Assembly: GCA_964413095.1 (NCBI GenBank)
Contig: CAYPRJ010000001.1
Span: forward strand, 6,975-70,974
Length of the DNA stretch: 64,000 bases
DNA from: Candidatus Woesearchaeota archaeon
GTDB lineage: Archaea; Nanobdellota; Nanobdellia; Pacearchaeales; GW2011-AR1
Direction: 5' to 3'
The notes under the pieces: model-generated
Seen by the model: only the letters and a program-made list of their open reading frames with translations
Databases searched by the model: none
Told to the model about the DNA's origin: nothing
Translations under genes and position numbers: made by a program
In this document: positions 28,814 through 57,674 of the stretch, one piece after another
How positions within the stretch are numbered: the stretch's first letter is position 1
Layout of the letters: the number at the start of each line of letters is the position of its first letter

Positions 28814-29074
28814 TTGTTATATATTCCAAAAACTTATAAATTAAAAAATCAGAACTCCTATCAATTTTGTTTTACTAATTATAATAAACATTTACTTAGA
28901 GGTGTTAGAAATTCTCTATTGAGTATTGGTATTAATTGTTCAAAAATTAGTAGTAGGGATATTTATATTACTAAAAAATCTGAATTAAGAAAGTTTTTAA
29001 AACTAATAGGGTTCAATAATGATAGGCATCTTAAAAAAATTAAGATGTGGAAACTTGATAGCCCCATAGTCTAG
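28814..29074 (+). pseudogene. truncated paralog (C-terminal half only) of the LAGLIDADG protein at 40711-41334, abutting a tRNA
   Basis: LLRGVRNSLLSIGINCSKISS aligns to LIKGVSKLCDELNLNCSKIKI of the 207-aa LAGLIDADG protein. No LAGLIDADG motif is retained. The stop lies inside the 5' end of the downstream tRNA. Confidence 0.45.
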
Positions 29075-29202
29075 CGGTCAAATTCTTTTGTGCTGTAAAA
29101 AGTACATAGAAGACTATAGATACAGCCCTTTGGACAGGAGATTTAATAACTAAGTCAAATGATGGAAAGGCTGTGACCTCGGTTCGAATCCGAGTGGGGC
29201 TA
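29060..29202 (+). tRNA. tRNA-Gln(TTG) candidate with two introns (D-loop ~36 nt, anticodon loop ~34 nt)
   Basis: Acceptor AGCCCCA/TGGGGCT, T-arm CTCGG-TTCGAAT-CCGAG, anticodon stem CAGCC/GGCTG with loop CTTTGG..A. Folded by hand, so the anticodon is tentative. Confidence 0.5.
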
Positions 29203-40584: not shown

Positions 40585-40720
40585 AGCCTGTGGAGGGATT
40601 CTAACCCCCGGCCTACTGCTGGCTTTCTGAACATGTAGTTGGCTCAGATACAAGGCAGTTGAGCATATCTTAACCTTTTAGAGTCACAGATATTCCGCTC
40701 TAACACTGAGCTACACAGGC
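40585..40720 (-). tRNA. tRNA-Thr(TGT) with two introns (~36 nt after the D-arm, ~28 nt at 37/38)
   Basis: Reverse complement: acceptor GCCTGTG/CACAGGC, D-arm GCTC..GAGC, anticodon stem ACTGC/GCAGT with loop CTTGTA|intron|A, T-arm GGGGG-TTAGAAT-CCCTC. Confidence 0.6.
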
Positions 40721-41334
40721 TTAATATTAGACAGAGTTATATTCTTTAAAAAGTTTTGTCCCTTCAATCTTAATGGAAGTTTATTATCAAATCTTATATA
40801 ATAAAAAGGAATTTTATTTGTATAATTTATTTTTATTTTGGAACAATTTAGATTAAGTTCGTCGCATAATTTACTTACCCCTTTTATTAAATTAAATCTT
40901 TTCTGTTTAAGCTGAATTCTTTTATTATACACAGAACCATCTGTATCAACTAATCCTGCTAGATAATTTAGTGCACAAGTTTTATTTGTTTTAACTATCT
41001 TTGGGATTTTCCCAAATTTCTTCTTTCCAATTTCACTTTCTAATTTTACAAAATAAAAAAATAACCCTGCGTTTTCTATCTTTAAATAATATGAATTTTG
41101 TTTTCTATTATCTTTGTTAATCTTTCCATTAACTGAAAAAAGTTTGTTTAACACGTTTCTAATGTAATCAATATAGATTTCACTCCCTGAATAAACTCTG
41201 AGAAGATAATGATAACCTCCTTTTTTTCTTTTCGTTATACTTAAAGAACCATCACCTTCTATAACTCCTAAAAGATATGCAATATCTTTATTTATTGTGG
41301 GTATGTTTATTTCACTCCTTCTTGTTTTTATCAT
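40711..41334 (-). CDS. free-standing LAGLIDADG homing endonuclease-like protein
   Basis: Two LAGLIDADG motifs, YLLGVIEGDGSL and YLAGLVDTDGSV. 207 aa. The stop codon lies inside the 5' acceptor stem of tRNA-Thr. Confidence 0.8.
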   Translation of the reverse strand: MIKTRRSEINIPTINKDIAYLLGVIEGDGSLSITKRKKGGYHYLLRVYSGSEIYIDYIRNVLNKLFSVNGKINKDNRKQNSYYLKIENAGLFFYFVKLESEIGKKKFGKIPKIVKTNKTCALNYLAGLVDTDGSVYNKRIQLKQKRFNLIKGVSKLCDELNLNCSKIKINYTNKIPFYYIRFDNKLPLRLKGQNFLKNITLSNIKPV

Positions 41335-42610: not shown

Positions 42611-42719
42611 TGGTCCTGCGCGGAATTGAACCGCGGTTTTATCCATTTTGTGAACAGCTTACAGATTTAAGTGAACTGAACTCGTCAAGGACATGTCTTA
42701 GCCACTGGACTACAGGACC
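42611..42719 (-). tRNA. tRNA-Val(GAC) with ~37-nt anticodon-loop intron
   Basis: Reverse complement: acceptor GGTCCTG/CAGGACC, D-arm GTC-AGTGGCTAA-GAC, anticodon stem TGTCC/GGATA with loop TTGACG, T-arm CGCGG-TTCAATT-CCGCG. Confidence 0.6.
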
Positions 42720-45362: not shown

Positions 45363-48300
45363 ATGAATAAGCAAAAAGCAAATAAAATTGAAAGATTTTT
45401 TTTAGCAGGAATTTTGTTAGTTGTTTTAATCTCTTTTGTTTCAGCGTCGTATTCTTTGTCAAATTTTGGTATTGGTGATTCTGATAAATCTTTAAGTTTT
45501 GATGATAAAAGTTGTGAAGCTGGACAGGATTTTCTAATAAAAATTTCTTCTTTTGGATGTACACCAAGTGTTGTTAGAAGTGATTTGCTTGAAGAACAAA
45601 ACGTTCCTGTTTTTTGTCAGCTTTCAGCCACAAAATTAAATCCTTTGATTGATGTTGAAGCTATTGAAAGTATTTCATTTAAAGGAGATTATCCAGATGC
45701 AGTTTCTGGTATTGGTTTTTATCCTGCAAAATCTGCTTTAAGTGCTAAACAAGATATTAATTATCCTGTTTTGAATAATATTGGTTATGTTACTATAGTC
45801 TTGAAAGAGCAAGCCAATGAATCTTCAATGCCAGATGTTGTCAAAGGAAATTTAACTGCTAATATAAAATATGATATAAAAAATGCTTTTGGTGTTGGAA
45901 AAGCTAATTTTTATCTTCCGAGTTTAACAGATGAAGAATGGGAAGAAAGATATTTTCAATATGGTTTTTGGGAGAAAAAAGGATATTTAAGAGCAGAAAA
46001 TATTGAATCAAACAGTGCAACAATTTCTGTTTATAATAAAAATTTGCAAAAAACATCTAGTGTTAATTTAGAAAAAGGAAAAACTTCTAAAGAAATTTAT
46101 ATTCCAGGTTTTGATTATTGTCAGGGAAGTTTACAGTTGAGGTTAGATAGTGTAGAAGCTGCAGATACAAGAGCAAGATTAAGAGTAAATGAAGATATTG
46201 TTGAAGTTGCAAGAAGAGAGAAGTTTTTAGATAATAAATGTACTGTTATTGGTTTAGAAAGAGATGGTTTAGTTCAAAATGTAGAAATTAGATGTGATGA
46301 AGATGAAGGAAGGAAAACCATTACACTAAGAATTGAGCCAAAAATTAAAATTAGTATTGATGGAGAAGAAAGAGAAGTAGGAGTTGGAGATTATTTATAT
46401 GAAGATGAGGAAAAAAATGAATTTGTGTATTTAGGGCATATAGGAGCAAAAAAAGACAGCACCAACATAGAAGATATTTATTTATTTGTTGTTAGATTAC
46501 CTGAGTTTGAAAAAAAATTAAGCCAAGATAAAATTTCTTCTATTGGAAATTTTGTTGATAAACTTGAGTATAAAGATTTAACTGGAAATGTAGTGACAGA
46601 TGTGCTGTTAAATTCTTTGAGATTATTTGGAGCAGGAAGTGAAGCATTATTTAGGCGTATTGTTGAAGGACAAGCTTATAGAATTGTTTCTTATCCTGAA
46701 ATAGAAGAGGTTTTTGGGCAAGAAATTCAAATAATTGATTTTGTTGATGTTCAAGATAAAGAACTTAATGGAGCAGAAGAATATTATCAAAATGCTATAG
46801 GTGATTATAAAAATATAGTTGAGAATTTTGCTGGAGAAAAATATCCAGAAAATAGCAGAGTTAACTTAGGAGAAGAAGCTTTATATCAGCAGATAATTCT
46901 TGCAAGAGATTTAGGACAAGGAAAAACTATGGTTGATTTATGCGAGAACTTTAAAGAAAAATATCCTGATTCTGATATAGACCTTAGTGATTGTGATGAT
47001 AGTTACAAACTTTCTAATTCAGAGATTTCAACAGATTATGTTAAAATTAATGGAAAAACTGAGAAAATTTCTTTTGATGGAATTTATGAACCAGGATTTT
47101 ATGATTATGGAGCAGAAGTTTTAGTTGAGGGGCCTAATGGTGAAAGGTCATTATTGTATCTTTCAAAGGATCAAACTATTAATTTGGATGATTTTAGAGA
47201 TGAAGAAAATCTAAATGAATTTATTCAACTAGTTTCTCTTGATGATGATTCTGCTAGATTAAAGATAAATCTTGCTGAAACTGGTTTGAAAAAATTGATT
47301 TCTTCAGATAATAAAAATCTGAAAAAAGATATTTCTGAAAGTTTTGGAAGTGATTATATTTTTACATTAAAAGATATACATCTTGAAAAATCAGCAAAAG
47401 TTTCTGTGATTCCTAATATTAATAATGTTGGAACAGAGGCGAATTTTAGTTTTCAAATTGGAATAGAAAAAAGATGGAATTTAACTTTAGCTCCTGATAC
47501 AATTGAAAAAAGGATTGATGCTTTGAATGGAACAATTGGCAAATTGCAGAATATTTCTGATACTCTTGGAGACGTAATTAAAGTTGGAAAAACTGCATGT
47601 CTTGGTACAGGAGCTGTTTTAACTATTAAAAATTTCTTAGCTAATCTTGAGGGAACAGGAATTGCAAGGCAAAAAGTTATGAGAGGAGAAAATGGTTGGT
47701 ATGAGAAATGCACTGATTTAGTTGAAAAAGGAGAATATGTTTCTTTAGAACAATGTTTTCTTGAAAACTCTGATAAGATTGATAAAGATGTTGAAGAGGT
47801 AACTGAAATAATAAATAAACAAGATAAAGAAATAAAAAAAATTCAAGAGCAGTTCACCGAGAGTAAATTTTTATCTGAAAAAGTTGTTGATACAGATAAA
47901 TTTATGGAAGAATTCACTGAAAAAGTTCAAGAAGAGATTTCTGTTTTAGGAAATAGTTTTGAAGATCCAAGAGGTAAGGGAGAGAGTATTAATATTGAAG
48001 AAATGAGAAAAACTCTTTCTTATGAAGGATGGAAACAAGGTTATTATAGTACAGAGAAACTTAAAGAAATAGAACTTGCTTTAATGGTTTTGGAATCTGG
48101 TGCTGATGAAGATTTGAAAAATATTTATAGGGAGAGACTTTATTCTGACCTTTCAGAAGTGCAAGCGAACTCAGAAAGTTTTGCAGAAATTTCAAATTTA
48201 GCAAATGACTTGAATGTTCAATCAAGCCAGATTTCATTTTTAGAAGTTGGAGAAAGAGTTAAGGAAATTACTTATGGTGGTTTAACAAATAAAGATACAG

Positions 48301-51300
48301 AAATACAAGAAATTGATGAGAATGTTCCTGTTTCTGTTTTGCAAACTTCTAGGGGAGATAAGCTTATACTTATTTTAGATGATTCTTCAGGAACAGAGAT
48401 TTTACCTATTAAAAGAGATGAAGATGACTCTTTAGTTGTTTATGGTGTGAATGGCAATAGGCTCTCTTCAGAAGAGCTTTCTGGAAGTTTAGTTAAAGAA
48501 TTAGATCAGATTTATTTTAAGAAATATGATAAATCTTCTTATGAGAATTCTTATAAAAACGCAGAATTGAAATATTATGAAACAGAGCCGTACAAAGGTT
48601 TTCCTGCTATTGTGCCTTTTGATTTAGGTAATGGTTGGTATGCAGCAACAAAACAAACAATTTCAACTGGAGCAAGTATTGCAAGTTATGATAAATCTGG
48701 GCAAGTTAATAGTTTTTATTTGTGCAATGTTGGAAAAAATGGAATACAGGAATTTTACTCTTCAGCAGGAGATGATAATTGCAGAGGATTTAATTTAGGA
48801 ACAGGGCAAGCTTATGACCAGTTTGCTGGTTTAAAAGAGAAAGAAACAAAAGATTTAGTGGAGTGTGCAGTTGATGCTATTGAACAAGCTTCTGATGCAT
48901 ATGAATCAGAGGTTAGTAGAGTTAGAATAAGAACTAGTTGTGGAGGAACAGTAACTTTAAAGGTTGGTGAGCCAGCAGCAGATATTCCTGATATTCAGTG
49001 CCAGGATTTTATGTCTCCAAAGGATTGTAATTTGCTTTTTAATGTTTGTGATCCTTTTATTTGCCCTTCAAGTAGGTGTGATTTTGGAGGAGCCTACCCT
49101 GTAAAAGATGTTGTTCAATCAGGAATAATTGGAAGTTTAATTCTTTGTCTTCCAAATGCCCAAGAAGGAATTGCTGTCCCAGTTTGTATAACTGGAATAA
49201 AAGCAGGAACTGATGGCTGGCTTTCTGTTATGGAATCTTATAGAGATTGTTTGCAAGAAAGTTTAGAGACAGGAAAAAATATGGGAATATGTGATGAAAT
49301 GCATAGTGTTTATTTATGTGAGTTTTTCTGGAAGCAAGCACTTCCTTTAGCTGATTTAGCAGTACCAAAAGTATTGGAGGCTTTTTCAGGACAAGGTACT
49401 CAAGGTGGAGGAGAATATCTTTCTGTTCAAAATGCTTGGGAAAATGCAGAAAATTCTTTAGATTATTTTACTCAGTCTTATGCAACTGAATCTTATAAAG
49501 CATTTCAGGCAAGATCTACAGGAGAAGCAGGAACTTTAGTTTGCAAAACATTTGCTTCAGCAGCATATGCTGATACAGGAAGTTTATTTGATGCAATGAC
49601 TGAAGCAGAATCACCAGCACAGTATCATGGGAACTTTGAAGAGATTACTTTTAGCACTGTAACTTCACCTCCAACTTCTCATTATAAGGTGTTTTATCAT
49701 ATTTATGCAGGAGAAAATTCTGGAGCTTATTATAAAGTTTATTTGAAAGGAAGTTCTGAAAGCTTTTATCAGGATGCTTCAAGAACCAGACAAGTAGCTT
49801 CAGGATATGTGGCTGCAGGAGATTATGCTTCTGAGACAGAAGATTTTACTGCTCCTTCTGGCTATACTCAGATGTGTATAAATGTTAATGGAGAAGAAGA
49901 GTGCGGTTTCAAAGAAGTTTCAACTTCTTTTGCTGCTGATTATATTACAGATAGTTATGCGAAAGAGCAGATTGAAAAATCAGATATTACTACAGAGGAG
50001 GAATGTGTTTCAGGAACTGTCAGTGTTTATAGTTTGCTTGATTTGAATCTTCAAAGTTCTGTTGAGGAATTAATTGACCCTGCTATTTATGAAAAAGGAA
50101 TAACAAGAGTTTGTGCTACAGACAATCCTGGAAAAGGAACTGATCCTTATTCAGGAACTGAAGATTCAAGGTGGGTTGAAGTTGGTTATTGTGATTCAGA
50201 GAATATGAAATGCTGGCTTGATACTAAAAGCATTAAAGATGCAATAGAACTTGAAGGTGTAGAAGAAGAAGCATTAGATACAGTTACAAAAAGTTATATG
50301 GATATTTTGAGAGAAGAAGGAGATTATCTTTCTGAAAAGGAGTTTGAAAAGAAACTTGAAGAAATTGAGGAAGAAGAAAATTCAGAAGAAAAAATTAAGT
50401 TAGTTGAAGAAATTCTTGACAGAGTTTTCCTTAATAATAAAAGAGCTTACTTGTTATTGTTAAGAGGAAATGCTTATGGAGATTTGGCTTTAAATGCATT
50501 TAGAGGAGTAATATCTAAAGTAACTGGAGGAGAAGCTGGTGGAAGTGCTGGTGTTGGAGATGAGACTGGTGCTGAGACAGGTGTTGAAGGAGATATGTCA
50601 GATATAGAGAAAACTTATGAAATAGATAGAATTGGTTTTAAAATAGATGATAAAGAAGCTGAGTTTAAAGAAGATGTTAAAAAGCAAGCAGATGAAGATG
50701 TTGAGCTTGTTGTAGAATATGAGTATAATTGTGAATATGCAGAGTATCAAGTTTTTTCTCCTCAAGGTTTCTTTAAGGGTTTAGTTAGTGGTTTTGATTG
50801 GAATAAGCAAGTTTCTGGAAGAATTGATAAAGAAAGAGTGGACTTGCTTTTGAATAAACTTGATGAAGAGACTTATTATGTTAATGGTTATTGTTTTGAT
50901 GAAAAAGGGAATTCAAAGAAAACTAAATCTAATAATTTAATTGTAGCAGAAGTTTCTGGAGAAGAAATTATTGAAACTCCTTCTTTGTTTGATAGGTATG
51001 AAAAAATTGTGGATGAAAATGATGAGAATTTGTTTGATAAATATGCTGAAGAGAATTTGCCAGAAGGATGGAATCCTAATAAATTTAAAGCTTTACTTGT
51101 TGCTATTGCTATAAGACAGAGTAATCTTGGTTATCCTGAAGGAATTTATGATCCAAGATGGATTATGGAATATGGCTGGGAAGTAAGAGAAGACAAATTA
51201 CAAAGAATAGAAAAGTATGTTTGCCAAGAAGGAACTGATGTTAATGGATTATCTTCTGAAGAAGTTTTAAAGTGTGCAGAAGCACAAATTAAAGATGCTT

Positions 51301-51533
51301 CTAAAACTTTGAAGTTTGCTTTGGATAAGAGTGTGAATAAAGAAAGTGATTACTCAAAATGTGATAAAACAATTTATAGGTTAAGAAGTGATTCTTTGAT
51401 AAAATGTGTTTTAAGTGTTTATATGACTGGAGAGAATTCTAAGATTATTGGAGAGAGTGAAGGAGAAAAATATGCTAAAGAAGTAATGGAAATAATGAAA
51501 GAGTGGGAAGATTATTTTTCTAAGAATTCTTAA
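45363..51533 (+). CDS. giant secreted surface protein (2056 aa) with Cys-rich central module
   Basis: N-terminal signal peptide FFLAGILLVVLISFVSASYS, a 6.2-kb uninterrupted ORF, a central dense Cys cluster (CQDFMSPKDCNLLFNVCDPFICPSSRCDF...), and an acidic linker EEEENSEEKIK. Confidence 0.6.
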   Translation: MNKQKANKIERFFLAGILLVVLISFVSASYSLSNFGIGDSDKSLSFDDKSCEAGQDFLIKISSFGCTPSVVRSDLLEEQNVPVFCQLSATKLNPLIDVEAIESISFKGDYPDAVSGIGFYPAKSALSAKQDINYPVLNNIGYVTIVLKEQANESSMPDVVKGNLTANIKYDIKNAFGVGKANFYLPSLTDEEWEERYFQYGFWEKKGYLRAENIESNSATISVYNKNLQKTSSVNLEKGKTSKEIYIPGFDYCQGSLQLRLDSVEAADTRARLRVNEDIVEVARREKFLDNKCTVIGLERDGLVQNVEIRCDEDEGRKTITLRIEPKIKISIDGEEREVGVGDYLYEDEEKNEFVYLGHIGAKKDSTNIEDIYLFVVRLPEFEKKLSQDKISSIGNFVDKLEYKDLTGNVVTDVLLNSLRLFGAGSEALFRRIVEGQAYRIVSYPEIEEVFGQEIQIIDFVDVQDKELNGAEEYYQNAIGDYKNIVENFAGEKYPENSRVNLGEEALYQQIILARDLGQGKTMVDLCENFKEKYPDSDIDLSDCDDSYKLSNSEISTDYVKINGKTEKISFDGIYEPGFYDYGAEVLVEGPNGERSLLYLSKDQTINLDDFRDEENLNEFIQLVSLDDDSARLKINLAETGLKKLISSDNKNLKKDISESFGSDYIFTLKDIHLEKSAKVSVIPNINNVGTEANFSFQIGIEKRWNLTLAPDTIEKRIDALNGTIGKLQNISDTLGDVIKVGKTACLGTGAVLTIKNFLANLEGTGIARQKVMRGENGWYEKCTDLVEKGEYVSLEQCFLENSDKIDKDVEEVTEIINKQDKEIKKIQEQFTESKFLSEKVVDTDKFMEEFTEKVQEEISVLGNSFEDPRGKGESINIEEMRKTLSYEGWKQGYYSTEKLKEIELALMVLESGADEDLKNIYRERLYSDLSEVQANSESFAEISNLANDLNVQSSQISFLEVGERVKEITYGGLTNKDTEIQEIDENVPVSVLQTSRGDKLILILDDSSGTEILPIKRDEDDSLVVYGVNGNRLSSEELSGSLVKELDQIYFKKYDKSSYENSYKNAELKYYETEPYKGFPAIVPFDLGNGWYAATKQTISTGASIASYDKSGQVNSFYLCNVGKNGIQEFYSSAGDDNCRGFNLGTGQAYDQFAGLKEKETKDLVECAVDAIEQASDAYESEVSRVRIRTSCGGTVTLKVGEPAADIPDIQCQDFMSPKDCNLLFNVCDPFICPSSRCDFGGAYPVKDVVQSGIIGSLILCLPNAQEGIAVPVCITGIKAGTDGWLSVMESYRDCLQESLETGKNMGICDEMHSVYLCEFFWKQALPLADLAVPKVLEAFSGQGTQGGGEYLSVQNAWENAENSLDYFTQSYATESYKAFQARSTGEAGTLVCKTFASAAYADTGSLFDAMTEAESPAQYHGNFEEITFSTVTSPPTSHYKVFYHIYAGENSGAYYKVYLKGSSESFYQDASRTRQVASGYVAAGDYASETEDFTAPSGYTQMCINVNGEEECGFKEVSTSFAADYITDSYAKEQIEKSDITTEEECVSGTVSVYSLLDLNLQSSVEELIDPAIYEKGITRVCATDNPGKGTDPYSGTEDSRWVEVGYCDSENMKCWLDTKSIKDAIELEGVEEEALDTVTKSYMDILREEGDYLSEKEFEKKLEEIEEEENSEEKIKLVEEILDRVFLNNKRAYLLLLRGNAYGDLALNAFRGVISKVTGGEAGGSAGVGDETGAETGVEGDMSDIEKTYEIDRIGFKIDDKEAEFKEDVKKQADEDVELVVEYEYNCEYAEYQVFSPQGFFKGLVSGFDWNKQVSGRIDKERVDLLLNKLDEETYYVNGYCFDEKGNSKKTKSNNLIVAEVSGEEIIETPSLFDRYEKIVDENDENLFDKYAEENLPEGWNPNKFKALLVAIAIRQSNLGYPEGIYDPRWIMEYGWEVREDKLQRIEKYVCQEGTDVNGLSSEEVLKCAEAQIKDASKTLKFALDKSVNKESDYSKCDKTIYRLRSDSLIKCVLSVYMTGENSKIIGESEGEKYAKEVMEIMKEWEDYFSKNS

Positions 51534-51720
51534 TAGTTAAATTACGCGGGAGAAAGGATTCGAATGAAAACTTCTGACTCTGAAATCACACTTCCAGCAA
51601 CCTGAATCCTATTTATGCGGGAGAAAGGATTCAAATTCAAAACCTCGCGGTTTTGTATCCAGATGCAACTTCCTCTTTTTGCCTTTGAAGGAAGTTATCA
51701 TATAGTTCGAATCCTATTTA

Positions 51721-51858
51721 TGCGGGAGAAAGGATTCGAACCTTCGCAGGCACTAAGCCAACAGGTTTCTTCGAGTTAGTTTGCGTTATTTGTGAGACAT
51801 AATCTCTCGCAATCTTCTCGCCTAAGCCTGTCCCGTTTGACCACTCCGGCACTCCCGC
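51721..51858 (-). tRNA. tRNA-Leu(TAG), class II with long variable arm, 54-nt intron at 37/38
   Basis: Reverse complement: acceptor GCGGGAG/CTCCCGC, anticodon stem ACAGG/CCTGT with loop CTTAGG|intron|A, variable arm TGGCTTAGTGCCTGC, T-arm GAAGG-TTCGAAT-CCTTT. Confidence 0.7.
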
Positions 51859-52012
51859 ATTCAAGAGGAGTGGGAAAACTCGTTTGACCCGAAAGTTCTC
51901 GTGAACTTCCTGTAGCCCTTAATTTGAGCGAGGGCTTGAGTTCTCCGGCACTCCCGCATAGAATTAAAGAGAATTTTGAATATAAAAAGCTTTTTAGAAT
52001 TAATGGTTGAGA

Positions 52013-53011
52013 TTATTTCTTTTTTAAATCAGCTTCTTTTTGTTTTATTTTTTCTTCAAGTTTTAATTTTTCTATGAGTTCTTTATAACGATTTCTTATT
52101 GTAACTTCTGTTATGCCTGCAATATCTGCAACTTCTCTTTGTGTTTTTTTCTCGTCGTTCATTAAAGCTGCCACATATAAAGCTGCTGCAGCAATTCCTG
52201 CTGGTCCACGTCCTGAAGTTAATTCAACTTTTTCTGCTTGTTTTAAAATTTTTAATGCGTCGTTTTGTGTTTTTGGAGAGAGTTTTAATATTGAGGAAAA
52301 TCTGGAAATATAATCTTTTGGAGAACTTTGTTTTACTTTTATTCCTAACTTTCTAATTATGAATCTGTAAGTTCTTCCTATTTCTTTCCTCTCAACATCT
52401 GAAGCAGTTGCCATCTCGTCTAATGTTCGTGGGATGTTGTAACTTCTGCAAGCAGCATATAAACAAGCTGCAATTACTGATTCCATGCTTCTCCCTCTTA
52501 CTAAACCTCTTTGTAAAACATAATTGTAAATTCTCGCAGCTTCATCTCTTACTACATTTGGCAAATTTAAATAAGAAGCAATAACTCTAAGTTCTGCCAT
52601 TGCTAATCTTAAATTTCTTTCAATAGAAGTTGAAACTCTTTCTTGCCATTTTTTTAGCCGTAAAAATTTCCGAGTTTGTCCTGGTTCTAGTTTGTAGATG
52701 TCTGAAATTTCTCCAACATTTGTTGTTAGACCTTTGTCAAATTTTTGCATACTTATTGGAGCTCCACCACGACCTTTTTTTTCATCTTTGTCAAAACTTC
52801 CAGATAAATCTATTCCTGTATCTGTCATTTTTTCTTCTATGACAAGACCACAATCATTACAAATAATTTCTCCTAAATGAGGATCATAAGTAATATTTAC
52901 ACTTCCACATTCAGGACATTTTTTTATAGAGGTCATTTGAGTTGTTTTTAGCCATTTTAAGACTAAAGAAATTTTGTTACTTAGAGGTTGGTAAAAAGGT
53001 TTATAAACCAA
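52013..53011 (-). CDS. tfb: transcription initiation factor TFB (TFIIB homolog)
   Basis: N-terminal Zn ribbon CPECGS...CNDCG, the B-linker and two cyclin repeats. 332 aa. Confidence 0.9.
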   Translation of the reverse strand: MVYKPFYQPLSNKISLVLKWLKTTQMTSIKKCPECGSVNITYDPHLGEIICNDCGLVIEEKMTDTGIDLSGSFDKDEKKGRGGAPISMQKFDKGLTTNVGEISDIYKLEPGQTRKFLRLKKWQERVSTSIERNLRLAMAELRVIASYLNLPNVVRDEAARIYNYVLQRGLVRGRSMESVIAACLYAACRSYNIPRTLDEMATASDVERKEIGRTYRFIIRKLGIKVKQSSPKDYISRFSSILKLSPKTQNDALKILKQAEKVELTSGRGPAGIAAAALYVAALMNDEKKTQREVADIAGITEVTIRNRYKELIEKLKLEEKIKQKEADLKKK

Positions 53012-53145
53012 CTTTGTACAGCGTTTATAAACTTTTCGTCATTTATAAAGCTTTCGGTTCTGTTTTTTGTGTGATGTCTTAAAATAAGTTTACAAATATT
53101 AAATCCCTAAGAATATTTATAAAAAAGAATTTCTTAAAAGATAAT

Positions 53146-53535
53146 ATGAAAAGGTGGATAATTTATGGATTGATTTTTCTAATATTTCCCTTGTTAGTGG
53201 TTCTCGCAAGTTTGTTAGAAATCAATGTTTTTAGAAACATATTTAACATTCCAGCATTATTTCTAGGGATGTTTCTTCTTGGAGCACTTATAGGAGAATT
53301 TACTGATAGAATTAATGCCATGACTACAAAAAGGAACAAGAAAAGAACATATGTGCTGCTTGGATGTTTATGGGGGCTAACATTTTTTGTGTTAACATTC
53401 ACTTTTTTCTACAGGGCAATCTATTTAACTGGATTAAATGAAGATTTAATTTCTATATTTAGTCTGGGATTGATGGTCGTTCTTACTCTAATTGGAGCAT
53501 ATATAGGATATATATTCTGGAAGAGAAGCAAATAG
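53146..53535 (+). CDS. membrane protein, unknown function
   Basis: 129 aa, 4 TM helices. Confidence 0.3.
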   Translation: MKRWIIYGLIFLIFPLLVVLASLLEINVFRNIFNIPALFLGMFLLGALIGEFTDRINAMTTKRNKKRTYVLLGCLWGLTFFVLTFTFFYRAIYLTGLNEDLISIFSLGLMVVLTLIGAYIGYIFWKRSK

Positions 53536-53600
53536 TATTTAAGGTATTCTTAGACGTTTCTTCAATATAATTAATTTTGTAAGAACAGTTTGGTTTTTGG

Positions 53601-53972
53601 TTAGGCTTTTTCTGATTCGATCAAAATTCCGTTAACAACACTTTCCTGGCTTGGACGGTTTGTTATTTTTACTTTTCCAAGTTCTGTATCTACAATTGTT
53701 CCCTTTGTCAAGATATTTTGCCTTGCAAGAAATCTGTTTGAAGGAGTTTCAAGAACTTTTTTAATTTCAACTTTTTTTGATTTATTATCTTTTAGAACAT
53801 TTACAAATTTTCCTTGAAGCAAAAATGTCTTTTCTTTTCTTCCTCTGACTTTTCTTTTTCTTCTTTTTTCTTCTCCTAATTTTACAATTTTTTTCTGTCC
53901 TGATTTTTCAAATAATTTTCTTTTTGTAGTTTTCTTATATTTTCCACCAGTAATTTTTCTTCCTTTTTTCAT
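53601..53972 (-). CDS. rps8e: 30S ribosomal protein eS8 (S8e)
   Basis: GRKITGGKYKK...TKGTIVDTELGKVKITNRPSQESVVNGILIE matches S8e. Confidence 0.8.
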   Translation of the reverse strand: MKKGRKITGGKYKKTTKRKLFEKSGQKKIVKLGEEKRRKRKVRGRKEKTFLLQGKFVNVLKDNKSKKVEIKKVLETPSNRFLARQNILTKGTIVDTELGKVKITNRPSQESVVNGILIESEKA

Positions 53973-54299
53973 GTTAAAGAAGAATAAAATTGATTTAAAT
54001 ATCTTTTTATTGTAATAATTTATATAAATATAAATTCTATGAAAATTTATGAGATATATAACAGTAAATTATAATCTAGCAAACAATCTTAATCTTAGAT
54101 ATGATACTTTGGAAAAAGTTATTGATGGATATGACTTATTGGTTGTAGCATCTGGCAATATTTCAATAGAAAAGTCTATTAATTTTTCCTTTCAAAGAAA
54201 ACCTTGATTTGGAACTGTTAAAAGCAGAATTATTTTCAATTCAAATAATCTAGTTTTTGTTAACGAAATATTTATAAATAAATTAAACACAGATTAATT

Positions 54300-54548
54300 A
54301 TGAATGGAATAGAAAGACCTTTAGATTTGTTGAATAATTCAAAAGGCAAAGAAGTTTTGGTGCACCTGAAAGGAGACAGGCAATTTGTGGGAACTTTGTT
54401 AGCATTTGATATTCATCTTAATCTCGTCTTGGATAACATAAAAGAAATCCAAAACAGCGAGATAAAAAGAAATTTTGGAATAACTTTTTTAAGAGGAGAT
54501 ACAATAATTTTTATTTCACCTGCTTCTACTGCTATGAAGAAAGAATAG
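54300..54548 (+). CDS. Sm-like archaeal protein (SmAP/LSm)
   Basis: Sm1/Sm2 motifs: VLVHLKGDRQFVGTLLAFDIHLNLVL...RGDTIIFI. Confidence 0.8.
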   Translation: MNGIERPLDLLNNSKGKEVLVHLKGDRQFVGTLLAFDIHLNLVLDNIKEIQNSEIKRNFGITFLRGDTIIFISPASTAMKKE

Positions 54549-54585
54549 TCATAACAAATAAAAACTCTTTTTTCTTTATTGATTT

Positions 54586-55488
54586 ATGTCAGAGAAAATA
54601 AAAATTGTTTTTTTAGGAACTTCTGATGCTGTTCCAACACCCTCTAGAAATCATACTGCTATTTTGTTGAGCTATAAAGGAGAAAATATTTTAATAGATT
54701 GTGGAGAAGGAACGCAGAGGCAATTTCGCAAAGCAAAAATAAACCAGTGTAAGCTAACAAAAATTTTAGTTACTCATTGGCATGCTGATCATATTTTAGG
54801 AATACCTGGCTTGTTGCAAACATTAGCTCTAAATGAATATAATAAGCCACTTGAAATTTATGGACCAAAAGGAACTAAAAAATTTATGAAAAAAATTTTA
54901 GAGACTTTTGTTTTCAGAGGAAAACATCCTTTAAAGATAAAAGAGGTTAAAGGGAAATTTCTTGAAACAAAAGATTTTTTTCTTGGAGCAAAATCTATGA
55001 CTCATGGAACTCCTTGTAATGGTTATACTTTTGCTAAAAAAGGTGAAATAAAAATTGATAAAAAAAAATTAGAGAAAACAAATATAGCTTTTGGAAAATG
55101 GCTTCAAAAATTAAAACAAGGAAAAGATATTGTTTACAAAGGGAAAAAATATAAAGCAGAAGATTTGACATTTAAAGAAGAAGACAAAAAGATTTCTTTT
55201 ATTCTCGATACTTCAATGAACAAAAAAATTGTTTCTTTTGTAAAAAATTCTGATTTGCTTATTTGTGAATCAAGTTTTGGAGAAAATCTTAAAGAAAAAG
55301 CTAAAGAATACAAGCATTTAACTGCAAGTCAAGCAGCTCAAATTGCAAAAAAAGCTAATGTGAAAAAACTTGTTTTAACACATTTAGGACAAAGATATGA
55401 AAAAAATAAAAAAGATATTTTGAAAGAAGCAAAAAAAGTTTTCAAGAATGTTTGTATAGCAGAAGACTTTGATAAGCTTGAAATTTAG
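54586..55488 (+). CDS. rnz: ribonuclease Z (tRNA 3' endonuclease), metallo-beta-lactamase fold
   Basis: FLGTSDAVPT...ILIDCGEGTQRQ...ILVTHWHADHILGIPGLL. Confidence 0.8.
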   Translation: MSEKIKIVFLGTSDAVPTPSRNHTAILLSYKGENILIDCGEGTQRQFRKAKINQCKLTKILVTHWHADHILGIPGLLQTLALNEYNKPLEIYGPKGTKKFMKKILETFVFRGKHPLKIKEVKGKFLETKDFFLGAKSMTHGTPCNGYTFAKKGEIKIDKKKLEKTNIAFGKWLQKLKQGKDIVYKGKKYKAEDLTFKEEDKKISFILDTSMNKKIVSFVKNSDLLICESSFGENLKEKAKEYKHLTASQAAQIAKKANVKKLVLTHLGQRYEKNKKDILKEAKKVFKNVCIAEDFDKLEI

Positions 55489-55504
55489 AAAAGATTAAAA
55501 AGAT

Positions 55505-55738
55505 TTGATTCTTATTTTTAGAATGAGCATGCTTGGAGATTATATGTGTCCTTTTATTGATGGATGTGAACCTTGTATTTCAAAAAATGATTGTCCTTCT
55601 GATCCTGAAAATTGTTCATACTACCAAATGATGATTTTTAAAGCTAAACACGAGATGAGAGATATGTCTAACAAAGAATTAACTGATTACTTTGATACAA
55701 AGGATTTAGCTTTAGAAACATGGGATTTTGGTGATTAA
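55505..55738 (+). CDS. hypothetical small Cys-containing protein
   Basis: 77-aa ORF (CPFIDGCEPCISKNDCPSDPENC). Confidence 0.2.
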   Translation: MILIFRMSMLGDYMCPFIDGCEPCISKNDCPSDPENCSYYQMMIFKAKHEMRDMSNKELTDYFDTKDLALETWDFGD

Positions 55739-55913
55739 TTTTTTGAATTGGTTAATAGAAAGATTTTAAATATTCTATTTTTCTTTGATTAATAGTGAGC
55801 CCCTGTAGCTCACGTAAGAAACCAAGGTTCCTTGACGTTCAACCTCCTTTGTGGCACTGTTGGGTGATTTCAAGTTGCCTTCGGTGAAATCGCGGACGCT
55901 ACAGGAGACAAGC

Positions 55914-56037
55914 CCCTGTAGCTCAGCCTGGATAGAGCGACTGCCTTCTATGCTATTGGCAGTGTCGTACATTGTTGCGATTATTTGTCTTCAGCGGATA
56001 GCAGTAGGCCGCAGGTTCGAATCCTGTCGGGGGCATT
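55914..56037 (+). tRNA. tRNA-Arg(TCT) with 49-nt intron at 37/38
   Basis: Acceptor GCCCCTG/CGGGGGC, D-arm GCTC-AGCCTGGATA-GAGC, anticodon stem ACTGC/GCAGT with loop CTTCTA|intron|A, T-arm GCAGG-TTCGAAT-CCTGT. Confidence 0.65.
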
Positions 56038-56128
56038 TAGGATTCGATAAATTAGTTTAAACGCATTCAAATAGGAAGGTTAAGCGAAGGAAACTTCGTG
56101 TCCTCGCTTCGAATCCTGTCAGGGGCAT

Positions 56129-56986
56129 TTGAAAAAAATGAAAAGCAAAAAAGAGGTGGAATTAAAATTTCCCTTAAGTAAAAAAGAAAAATATGTAGCA
56201 ATGCTTGCTCCTAGTTTTGTTGTTGATTTCTCTTATCCTAAAATAATTCATCAACTTAGGGAATTAGGTTTTGATAAAATTGTTGAATTGACTTTTGGAG
56301 CAAAAATGATTAATAGAGATTATCATAAAAAATTGAAAAAATCTAAAGAATTAGTTATTGCAAGTGTTTGTCCTGGTGTTGTTGAAACAATAAAAAATAA
56401 ATTTCCAAGGTATAAAAAAAATCTTATTAAAGTTGACAGTCCCATGATTGCTACAGCAAAGATTTGTAAAAAAATTTATCCAAATTATAAGATAGTCTTT
56501 ATTTCTCCTTGTGATTATAAAAAAACAGAAGCACAGAAAACAAATTATATTGATTATGTTGTTGACTATGGAAGATTGAAAAAATTACTCAAAAAAATTA
56601 AGATTAAAAAGAAGGGAAAAATTTTGTTTGATAAATTTTATAATGATTACACTAAAATTTATCCTGTTGCAGGAGGGCTCTCAAAAACAGCGAATCTTAA
56701 AGGATCTTTAAAAGAAAATGAGGTTATGATTATTGATGGAATTAATGATGTTATTAAATTTCTTAAAAAACCAAAAAAAGGAATAAGGTTTCTTGATGCT
56801 ACTTTTTGCAAGGGAAGTTGTGTTGGAGGTCCTTGTATAAATTCTAAATTACCTATTAAATTGAGAAAAAAGAAGATTTTGAATTATTTAAAAAAAGCAA
56901 AACAAGAGGATATTCCTGATACTAGAAAAGGAATTATTAAGAGAGCTAAAGGAATTTCTTTTTCTTCTAATTTCCCAAGCAAATAA
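56129..56986 (+). CDS. minimal [FeFe]-hydrogenase H-cluster domain-like protein (HydA/Narf-like, 285 aa)
   Basis: LAPSFVV..LRELGFDKIVELTFGAKM, L1-like IASVCPGVV (TSCCP with the first Cys replaced by Val), L2 ISPCDYKKTEAQ (MPCxxKxxE) and L3 FCKGSCVGGP (CxxGCxxGG). Confidence 0.6.
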   Translation: MKKMKSKKEVELKFPLSKKEKYVAMLAPSFVVDFSYPKIIHQLRELGFDKIVELTFGAKMINRDYHKKLKKSKELVIASVCPGVVETIKNKFPRYKKNLIKVDSPMIATAKICKKIYPNYKIVFISPCDYKKTEAQKTNYIDYVVDYGRLKKLLKKIKIKKKGKILFDKFYNDYTKIYPVAGGLSKTANLKGSLKENEVMIIDGINDVIKFLKKPKKGIRFLDATFCKGSCVGGPCINSKLPIKLRKKKILNYLKKAKQEDIPDTRKGIIKRAKGISFSSNFPSK

Positions 56987-57017
56987 TTTAAATAAGGTTT
57001 TCTTTTATTTTGAATAT

Positions 57018-57090
57018 GCGGAGGTGGCACAGTGGCTACTGCATCTGGTTGCAGCCCAGATTTTCGTGGGTTCGAATCCCACCCTCCGCT
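57018..57090 (+). tRNA. tRNA-Cys(GCA), intronless
   Basis: Acceptor GCGGAGG/CCTCCGC, anticodon arm TCTGG-TTGCAGC-CCAGA, T-arm GTGGG-TTCGAAT-CCCAC. 73 nt. Confidence 0.85.
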
Positions 57091-57260
57091 TAAACAATCT
57101 AAGGATTGTTTAATGGACGTGACTCTTCGAGTCCTAACTCGGTCATTGAAAAGTCGTTATTGATAAATTAAATTTGTCGCTTTCCAATAACCTCGCCCTC
57201 CGCTTATCTGTTACGTATAGGTATAGTGGACATTTAAAAAATAAAAATCAGGATTGTAAA

Positions 57261-57674
57261 ATGAAAACCCATACAAAATATTTGAAAATACATACTAAAG
57301 AAAGAATAGAATTTGTTAATATAACTTCTAAAATTGAAGAAGCTGTTAGAGAATCAGGAATTAAAGAAGGAATTGTTTTGGTAAATCCAATGCACATAAC
57401 AGCCTCGGTTTTTATTAATGATAATGAATCTGGTTTGTTAAATGACTTTAAAGAATGGCTGGAAAAACTCGCTCCAAAAGACTTTCAGTATAAGCACCAT
57501 CAAACAGGAGAAGATAATGCTTACGCACATTTGTGGAGAACAATCATGGGCCGAGAAACTACAATTGCAATCAGCGACGGGGAACTTGACTTTGGTCCTT
57601 GGGAAACTATTTTTTACGGAGAATTTGACGGACAAAGAGAGAAGAGAATTTTGATTAAGGTTTTGGGTGAATAG
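57261..57674 (+). CDS. YjbQ/UPF0047-family protein
   Basis: [14 protein letters not shown]...[34 protein letters not shown] matches the UPF0047 signature. The ORF-table start at 57174 runs over the tRNA trailer, so the true start is probably the M at 57261. Confidence 0.6.

Follow-up and report, generated by a model that had tools for sequence, protein, structure and literature searches.

Why should complete tRNA genes be flanked, about 100 nt away, by partial copies of their own ends? The question is raised by a 64,000-nt stretch of DNA (the window) from a Candidatus Woesearchaeota archaeon, placed by comparison of GlyRS and TFB in the Pacearchaeota/Woesearchaeota of the DPANN group, in which such copies were found beside tRNA-Leu, tRNA-Arg and tRNA-Cys. 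A first, sequence-only reading had offered three origins, namely integration scars, an insertion element duplicating its target, or the remnant of a permuted or split precursor. The explanation favoured here, and on balance considered probable, is that the copies stem from insertions in tRNA genes which regenerate the gene end that they enter and which were made and remodelled at the DNA level.

The repeats first noticed around tRNA-Leu were all recovered (Table 1). The 16-mer GCGGGAGAAAGGATTC occurs three times (51546, 51617 and 51722) and TCCGGCACTCCCGCAT twice (51845 and 51944), the expected number of matches for either being 0 in dinucleotide-preserving shuffles of the window. Copy 2 of the 3' end is an exact match over 29 nt, in addition to which it has TTT in place of TTC. 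The complete gene carries a canonical intron at ~51767–51820; it is called by Rfam with a ~57-nt insertion after the anticodon and missed by ARAGORN at default settings. This inner copy is presumed to be the functional gene; no TATA-like sequence lies ahead of it. The extension of the pattern to tRNA-Arg and tRNA-Cys was also confirmed, with copies of both ends at the former and of the 3' end at the latter. The orphan 5' end of tRNA-Arg lies ~25 nt downstream of a TATA-like box (55764–55773), and the orphan 3' end of tRNA-Cys is exact over 11 nt (57196–57206). While the inner genes are canonical, the orphan copies have decayed, with G73 in tRNA-Leu copy 3, one change at tRNA-Arg and three at tRNA-Cys.

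Table 1. Features of the three tRNA loci with end copies (positions are those of the window)
Feature	Position	Strand	Remarks
TATA-like box of tRNA-Leu unit, TTTTTATAT within AAAGCTTTTTATAT	51980-51988	-	22 nt upstream of outer 5' copy
Orphan 5' end of tRNA-Leu, positions -2 to 15, ATGCGGGAGTGCCGGAG	51943-51959	-	Exact repeat, offset 99; ancestral gene start
tRNA-Leu 5' filler, 84 nt, ~45% G+C	51859-51942	-	Missing from orthologous loci
Complete tRNA-Leu(TAG)	51721-51858	-	Rfam tRNA model 44.9 bits; ARAGORN with introns allowed agrees
Anti-T-loop AGGATTCGAAC, reverse complement of T-arm GTTCGAATCCT	51705-51715	-	5 nt past tRNA-Leu 3' end
tRNA-Leu 3' filler block 1, hairpin AACTTCCT...AGGAAGTT	51636-51704	-	
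tRNA-Leu 3' copy 2, T-loop to 3' end plus 12 nt of trailer including anti-T-loop	51604-51635	-	Offset 105
tRNA-Leu 3' filler block 2, with GGTTGCTGGA	51565-51603	-	GGTTGCTGGA common to L009 tRNA-Leu blocks
Outermost orphan 3' end of tRNA-Leu (copy 3), TTCGAATCCTTTCTCCCGCG	51545-51564	-	Offset 176; discriminator G, not A
Orphan 5' end of tRNA-Arg, positions 0 to 14	55798-55812	+	Offset 113
Intron-derived module opening the tRNA-Arg 5' block	55813-55865	+	Homologous to L091 tRNA-Met 37/38 intron
Remainder of tRNA-Arg 5' block	55866-55911	+	Carries inverted piece GCTACAGG
Complete tRNA-Arg(TCT) with canonical intron	55912-56035	+	Rfam tRNA model 55.9 bits
tRNA-Arg 3' block	56039-56107	+	Anti-T-loop AGGATTCGA at 56039-56047, then module X at ~56054-56107
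Orphan 3' end of tRNA-Arg, TTCGAATCCTGTCaGGGGCATTT	56108-56130	+	Offset 92, one G-to-A change; next gene directly after
Complete tRNA-Cys	57018-57090	+	
tRNA-Cys 3' block and orphan 3' end	57091-57206	+	Orphan at 57189-57206, offset 114

Orthologous loci were compared, as the sequence-only reading had proposed, and the ~100-nt segments proved to be absent from the tRNA-Leu and tRNA-Arg genes of relatives. The relatives (L-numbered loci or contigs) are all metagenome assemblies, some with masked stretches (L193); the best identity of the window GlyRS is 78% among metagenomes and 64% among reference genomes, and TFB is up to 93% identical. Both the copies and the intron are lacking in the TFB-adjacent tRNA-Leu of L006, L010, L011, L055, L175 and L184, the gene being plain in L175 and L184 even though TFB is 91–93% identical there. 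The promoter motif AAAGCTTTTTATAT / AAAGTTTTTTATAT stands, exact or nearly so, ahead of an intact intron-less tRNA-Leu in L006, L011 and L055, and as the variant AAACTTTTTATAC in L010. Copy 3 ends at a distance of 12 nt from the stop of a gene that encodes a 2056-aa protein in the window, and in L175 the distance from the stop of the orthologous gene to the real 3' end of tRNA-Leu is 14 nt. In the closest relative, L088 (GlyRS 78% identical), tRNA-Arg has neither block; the same promoter lies directly ahead of it and the same downstream gene directly after, so that its flanks match those of the outer copies in the window. Because the promoters and flanks of the relatives match the flanks of the outer copies, and the blocks are absent, the genes must have been expanded from inside. 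Judged by this comparison, the outer partial copies occupy the ancestral gene ends, beside the conserved promoter or the neighbouring gene, and the ~100-nt segments are insertions, each block evidently consisting of a new filler and a second copy of the gene end, the latter now joined to the tRNA body.

The arrangement recurs. In ~0.8 Mb of DPANN-like sequence, surveyed by ARAGORN with introns allowed and by a repeat scan on the fetched loci, end copies accompany 15 of 110 tRNAs (~14%; Leu, Arg, Cys, Met and Phe), as counted by a procedure which misses genes with non-canonical introns. The unit measures 51–124 nt in every DPANN-like case, the DNA between the repeats being 39–98 bp of non-coding filler. 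The duplicated piece of 11–37 nt always runs from the D- or T-loop to the gene end: 3' copies start in the T-loop (positions 54–60, up to 62) and reach the gene end plus 0–12 nt, and 5' copies begin at or just ahead of +1 and stop at positions 11–25. No copies at kilobase range were found within 10 kb of any tRNA on these contigs. Units are also gained or lost at the level of strains, as the tRNA-Cys loci of two near-identical strains (L175 7743–7941 and L176 7803–7941) differ by exactly one 94-nt unit of 3' end and filler. The canonical intron of the same gene also differs, measuring 126 nt in L175 and 66 nt in L176 owing to a tandem duplication of 60 nt within it.

A control set, made up mostly of bacterial loci, comprised 36 tRNAs. 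Copies of the 3' end at a distance of 93–370 nt were found for five of them and 5' copies for none, so that the 3' form is not restricted to DPANN archaea. Downstream 3'-end copies were seen in bacterial loci fetched via GlyRS (Omnitrophota and others), namely L057 5673–5920, L059 9700–9960, L157 1041–1116 onward, L135 and L031. Some of these are perfect tandem units, and the fillers of two Omnitrophota tRNA-Arg genes have a conserved G+C-rich core in common. In L103 (2142–2265), past tRNA-Phe and a T-rich stretch, there is a longer partial copy from the variable loop onward with its T-loop split by ~55 nt; it looks like a fragment with an insertion of its own.

The nature of the fillers provides the second line of evidence. 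They have 40–50% G+C in a genome of 29% G+C, and several are related to sequences found at other tRNA genes, each link resting on a single pair of sequences. The first 52 nt of the tRNA-Arg 5' block match the whole canonical 37/38 intron of the L091 tRNA-Met (nhmmer E = 4e-5, ~85% identity as counted by eye on the alignment). The match begins one base past the point at which the outer copy ends and takes in the TTGGG of the intron, which pairs with CTCA in its home gene; a related module is present in the canonical tRNA-Cys intron of L175 and L176. Identity above 70% to an intron of a distinct tRNA was found for 55813–55865 only, the other blocks giving no match, and a search for homologues of tRNA-Leu 3' filler block 1 elsewhere also found none. 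Module X of the tRNA-Arg 3' block is the L184 tRNA-Arg 5' block read antisense (43 of 53 positions identical, a score reached by none of 2000 shuffles), and the orphan copy borders on the identical module end, CTTCGTGTyCTCGC, in the window as well as in L184. In L193, tRNA-Leu and tRNA-Arg share a hairpin element of ~35 nt within their D-loop blocks. Another 35-nt element (GGTTGCTGrACTCATAGAAC...GTTGTA) lies directly ahead of both the tRNA-Leu +1 and an orphan 3' copy in L009 (463–653, minus strand), and pieces of it occur at 51580–51603 of the window and in the L001 tRNA-Met block; these hint at shared modules, too thinly to build on. Two other sources of filler were considered and rejected. 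A degenerate tandem tRNA copy does not fit, as the fillers fail to align to the tRNA body, and for a viral origin a 17-mer of the intron module gave four exact hits in IMG/VR, which lie inside apparent coding sequence and were judged to be due to chance. An exact-pattern scan of that one collection gave no match for the 19-mer of the tRNA-Leu 3' end.

The blocks have a common layout on either strand: inner gene end, spacer of 3–13 nt, short inverted loop-proximal piece, module of fixed polarity, orphan end. As this layout does not depend on which way the gene is transcribed, the process appears to act on DNA and not on RNA, and the use of module X in opposite orientations relative to transcription likewise argues that the architecture is set at the DNA level rather than by an RNA fold. 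The mobility of the modules, their use in both orientations, their kinship with introns and the polymorphism in copy number are all evident from sequence comparison.

The inverted pieces are less general. Significant examples were found in five of 20 blocks: tRNA-Leu (a perfect 11-bp inverted repeat, shuffle test p = 0.003), the 3' (p = 0.007) and 5' (p = 0.04) blocks of tRNA-Arg, L014 (0.01) and the L184 tRNA-Arg 3' block (no shuffle reached the score). In the tRNA-Arg 5' block the piece GCTACAGG (55898–55905) is complementary to CCTGTAGC of the tRNA. The anti-T-loop of tRNA-Leu recurs after 3' copy 2 with C:G changed to T:A on both arms, and the 5' filler of the same gene terminates 8–10 nt ahead of the inner +1 with CCCACTCC, an inverted GGAGTGG(G) which is not significant alone (p = 0.36). 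An anti-T-loop was considered as a general feature of the blocks and discarded; since it is significant only in the tRNA-Leu and tRNA-Arg of the window, the tRNA-Arg of L184 and L014, it marks a subfamily and not the whole class. The pieces track the sequence of the host tRNA and not an element consensus, and they covary with it between the window and L184 (TTCGAATCCT/AGGATTCGA against TTCAAGTCCT/AGGATTTGAAC, and CCTGTAGC/GCTACAGG against CGTAGC/GCTACG).

Archaeal tRNA introns are cut at the bulge-helix-bulge (BHB) motif, in which a 4-bp helix separates two bulges of 3 nt. According to the favoured explanation, a short G+C-rich module of ~35–100 bp, capable of forming a hairpin and drawn from the same sequence pool as the mobile BHB tRNA introns of the lineage, would enter the gene at the D-loop or T-loop. 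Each module would arrive joined to a copy of the tRNA segment from the entry loop to the gene end, an outcome that would be expected if a small circular or other donor DNA with an att-like copy of the tRNA end recombined with the gene. The incoming copy would join the tRNA body, so that a complete tRNA persists, and the original end would stay with the native promoter (5') or the neighbouring gene (3') as an orphan one unit away. Units could later be gained or lost by unequal recombination or slippage between the direct repeats. Transcription would begin from the native promoter, close ahead of the outer 5' copy, RNase P and RNase Z would free the inner tRNA from the long precursor, and the splicing endonuclease would excise its canonical intron. 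The orphan ends and fillers would be by-products. Most likely it is the inner tRNA that functions, cut from this precursor. In the subfamily formed by the tRNA-Leu and tRNA-Arg of the window and the tRNA-Arg of L184, the inverted piece near the inner end may stop the duplicated strands from disturbing the folding of the tRNA. The recombination mechanism, the enzyme and the route of RNA processing are what we infer from this arrangement.

Several observations weigh against this explanation. A stretch of the tRNA-Cys block (~57133–57195, ~63 nt) is ~90% identical in L088 (1575–1637; nhmmer E ~5e-9), although neutral intergenic DNA is saturated between the two genomes; it holds a GTTATTG/CAATAAC hairpin which varies in its loop alone. 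This conservation suggests function or recent exchange, not junk. A Pfam scan of 20 of the 30 window open reading frames (ORFs) of at least 180 aa revealed a single mobility gene, that of a LAGLIDADG endonuclease located at another tRNA, and no recombinase, integrase or transposase. Neither a free or circular module nor a module copy outside tRNA loci was seen. The duplicated stretch ends exactly, in the first 5' cases to be tested, with a self-complementary 4-mer and 2 nt (CCGG-AG|, AGCT-CA|, TGTA-GC|), which is the geometry needed for a BHB formed between the two copies. In L019, the copies and the tRNA are identical at 25 of 25 positions and the adjacent homologous filler at ~75%, which also fits selection on the copies. 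Finally, the tight unit size of 51–124 nt is unexplained by the model, and the covarying inverted pieces are explained only loosely.

One alternative is that the blocks are genuine non-canonical introns. The promoter-proximal outer 5' copy and an outer 3' copy would then be the real exons and the inner copies intronic; the endonuclease would cut BHB-like motifs between the copies, the ligase would join the exons, and circles of ~100 nt would be freed, the predicted mature tRNA being identical in sequence to the inner gene. The genome has many non-canonical introns (such as those of tRNA 40585–40720 and of the D-loop of tRNA-Gln), and DPANN endonucleases with an L3 loop have been linked to increased tRNA gene disruption (PMC5829648). 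The palindromic 4-mers described above occur in all three 5' cases first tested, and the intron-derived tRNA-Arg module starts 1 nt past the palindrome point, as in its canonical home. A strict search for BHB motifs between the copies gave a mixed result. The 5' cases allow the central 4-bp helix with bulges in the right place, as does position 59/60 of the L002 tRNA-Cys, where a proper motif has a 5-bp outer helix. Otherwise the flanking helices are absent or reach only 0–3 bp; near the repeat boundary, a BHB is missing from most 3' cases and a palindrome from the L193 cases. Furthermore, some orphan copies are unfit as exons (G73 in tRNA-Leu copy 3; part of the outer T-stem of tRNA-Cys unable to pair), arrays of two or three units would require nested splicing, and one module lies antisense. 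A complete canonical tRNA stands inside the blocks, presumably functional without their removal, and splicing of the blocks is unnecessary because this inner tRNA is intact. The reading as introns is thus considered unlikely, even if 5' blocks are possibly excised by the broad-specificity DPANN endonuclease (PMC5829648).

The second alternative is that of ordinary att-site scars, left when viruses or plasmids of normal size integrated by means of their own integrase and later deletions spared the junctions. The insertion origin offered by the first reading is supported in outline, as orthologues lack the segments, duplications of tRNA ends flank them and the fillers are mobile; decayed elements of kilobase size do not fit, all units being 51–124 nt long. 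Segments running from the T-loop or D-arm to the gene end, with a reconstituted tRNA, are known from the att sites of SSV1, of pNOB8-type elements and of the Caldiarchaeum tRNA-Thr (PMC3293823), and the 3' copies at bacterial loci are similar. However, random deletion would not yield units of 51–124 nt throughout ~0.8 Mb with none of kilobase size. The fillers are shared with tRNA introns and, judged by exact matches in IMG/VR, not with viral contigs, exact units are gained and lost between strains, and no integrase remnants were found in or beside the blocks, with 20 ORFs scanned. Such scars are a rather improbable source of the copies.

A third possibility, to which little credence is given, is that selection maintains the copies as elements of a structured precursor or of small RNAs, with a role in processing control, as decoys for enzymes or integrases, or in an outer acceptor-like helix. 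It is in keeping with the high G+C of the fillers, with precursors that fold better than shuffled sequences (z = -4.8 and -2.8) and in which the outer 5' copy pairs with the outermost 3' copy, with the covariation that the window and L184 show in their anti-T-loop and anti-5'-exon pieces, with the conservation of the tRNA-Cys block in L088, and with copies that follow the sequence of their own tRNA in every genome. The sequence-only reading had held that an identical structure with covariation in relatives would point to such a precursor, and this was found in part: tRNA-Arg of L184 has the same architecture with covarying inverted pieces, but the same module is used in opposite orientations. 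The distribution is patchy as well, with blocks lacking in close relatives, fillers that are mutually unrelated at most loci, and copy numbers that vary between strains. An Rfam scan of 51400–57300 at permissive E-values returned the three tRNAs only, and inspection by eye revealed no C/D or H/ACA boxes in the fillers. An outer acceptor helix serving as a processing stem was predicted by folding and rejected, since in L002 the outer copies come from two different tRNAs, flank both and are unable to pair.

Simple tandem duplication caused by slippage of replication at tRNA genes under heavy transcription, without any mobile element, would explain the perfect tandem units and the copy-number polymorphism (L175/L176, L193 and the bacterial L057) and agrees with L019 and L002, where the sequence past the outer copy is homologous to filler, but in the window filler always stands between copies and never past the last, for which reason new DNA must have been inserted, the L088 and L175 flanks contain no filler, and fillers are homologous to an intron and a block of other genomes; as an origin it is very unlikely, and it accounts for amplification only. 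An insertion element with ordinary target-site duplication, as proposed at first, is contradicted by pieces of 11–37 nt that always run from loop to gene end and by the ancestral outer copy; neither a constant duplication length nor element-specific terminal inverted repeats, as in a transposon or miniature inverted-repeat transposable element, were found. The variable length, the loop-to-gene-end extent and the ancestral outer copy instead make the geometry one of the att type. The permuted or split precursor likewise found no support: the inner gene is a complete canonical tRNA which the pieces duplicate and do not complement, one outer copy has the wrong discriminator, and the L002 outer copies, flanking a two-tRNA unit, cannot pair. 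The possibility that the outer pieces conceal another tRNA, in a nested, split or tri-split arrangement, was also considered and rejected, as the fillers lack an anticodon arm and the copies repeat what the inner gene contains.

End-regenerating insertions have partial counterparts in known systems. Cis-mobilizable elements (CIMEs) of bacteria are kilobase-sized and have known integrase partners. They resemble the units described here in being non-coding DNA bounded by attL and attR and amplified or lost by site-specific or homologous recombination; the window units differ in being miniature, with no such partner identified. In Thermoproteales, BHB tRNA introns were reportedly found, by Fujishima and colleagues in 2010, to have been transposed between tRNA genes and positions. 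Near-identical short introns are found there in different tRNAs and positions, just as here the intron of tRNA-Met position 37/38 is found at 14/15 of tRNA-Arg, and as in the Thermoproteales, many non-canonical introns occur in the window lineage. We know of no report, for those transposed introns, of an exon duplicate reaching the gene end, a complete inner tRNA or an antisense orientation. The transposition of tRNA introns in Thermoproteales has been reviewed (PMC4390854, PMC4090602). Split, tri-split and permuted tRNAs (Nanoarchaeum, Caldivirga, Thermofilum, Cyanidioschyzon) also show stray tRNA pieces beside intron-related leaders; theirs are complementary halves joined via a BHB with no complete gene, whereas the pieces in the window are redundant with a complete one. 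According to the model put forward for the tRNA-Thr of Caldiarchaeum subterraneum (Sugahara et al., 2012; PMC3293823), a mobile element that integrates leaves behind a 5' piece of the tRNA, and an intron is gained. In this and in SSV1- or pNOB8-type integration, a direct repeat of part of the tRNA end flanks the insert, the copy brought by the element reconstitutes the tRNA, and the host end is displaced outside. However, those inserts are at least 1.8 kb long and carry a recombinase, whereas the window units of 51–124 bp have no coding capacity, occur on both sides of one gene and in short arrays, and have no integrase in sight. What is new relative to the known disruption of tRNA genes by mobile elements is therefore the combination of miniature non-coding units, both gene sides, both orientations, a narrow size range, strain-level arrays and no recombinase found.

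The origin of archaeal non-canonical tRNA introns and split tRNA genes is an old question which has been argued mostly from end states. The loci of the window look like intermediates, with modules shared with introns, gene ends stranded at a promoter or neighbouring gene, and numbers of units that differ between strains. It may be suggested tentatively that miniature, non-coding, end-regenerating modules of ~35–100 bp, of a kind not described before, colonise the D-, anticodon- and T-loops of DPANN tRNA genes in either orientation, surviving in the anticodon loop as spliceable BHB introns and in the other two loops by means of a replacement gene end. Owing to the repeat pairs, they may be excised as circles of ~100 nt by the splicing endonuclease and ligase, and perhaps inserted again. 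If so, the passage from intact tRNA genes to split ones and to those with several introns could be observed as it happens, and if a defined enzyme or RNA circles mobilise them, the process would be open to experiment.

The window has 27–35% G+C per 2-kb stretch and encodes, among others, an archaeal TFB, ribosomal protein S8e, an Sm protein, RNase Z and GlyRS. Six tRNAs were called by the Rfam tRNA model, four of them with long insertions, and a seventh, tRNA-Gln (29060–29202), with a D-loop intron and a canonical intron, was found by hand; given these, heavily interrupted tRNA genes were already present in the genome. No end copies accompany the four other tRNAs of the window (tRNA-Met, 42611–42719, 40585–40720 and tRNA-Gln). 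The tRNA-Gln(TTG) gene, on the plus strand, is unannotated, being missed by Rfam at the gathering score and by default ARAGORN, and mislabelled as Ile by ARAGORN with introns allowed. Manual work was needed for two of the seven tRNAs. Annotation of DPANN tRNAs may thus be confused by orphan ends and long precursors as well as by genes that default tools already miss, and orphan tRNA ends could be misread as prophage att sites.

ORFs with similarity to homing endonucleases were seen at two of these tRNAs. An ORF on the plus strand (28814–29074, 86 aa) overlaps the 5' end of tRNA-Gln and is weakly similar to the C-terminus of the LAGLIDADG protein of the window (E = 0.012). The LAGLIDADG homing-endonuclease ORF, on the minus strand (40711–41334, 207 aa; PF14528, PF05204) has its stop codon within the first 10 nt of the minus-strand tRNA at 40585–40720, which carries a non-canonical intron directly after the D-arm; it may be a free-standing homing endonuclease paired with the intron that splits its target. 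No orphan tRNA copy was found upstream of this gene. In the neighbourhood of tRNA-Leu, the adjoining ORF at 45363–51533 (plus strand) encodes the 2056-aa protein, which looks secreted and whose position is kept in relatives (2051–2087 aa, some with a PF01464 SLT domain). Immediately upstream of TFB, L185 and L186 carry inserted genes for a DDE transposase and a restriction-modification cluster, the transposase in L185 being without association to tRNA blocks.

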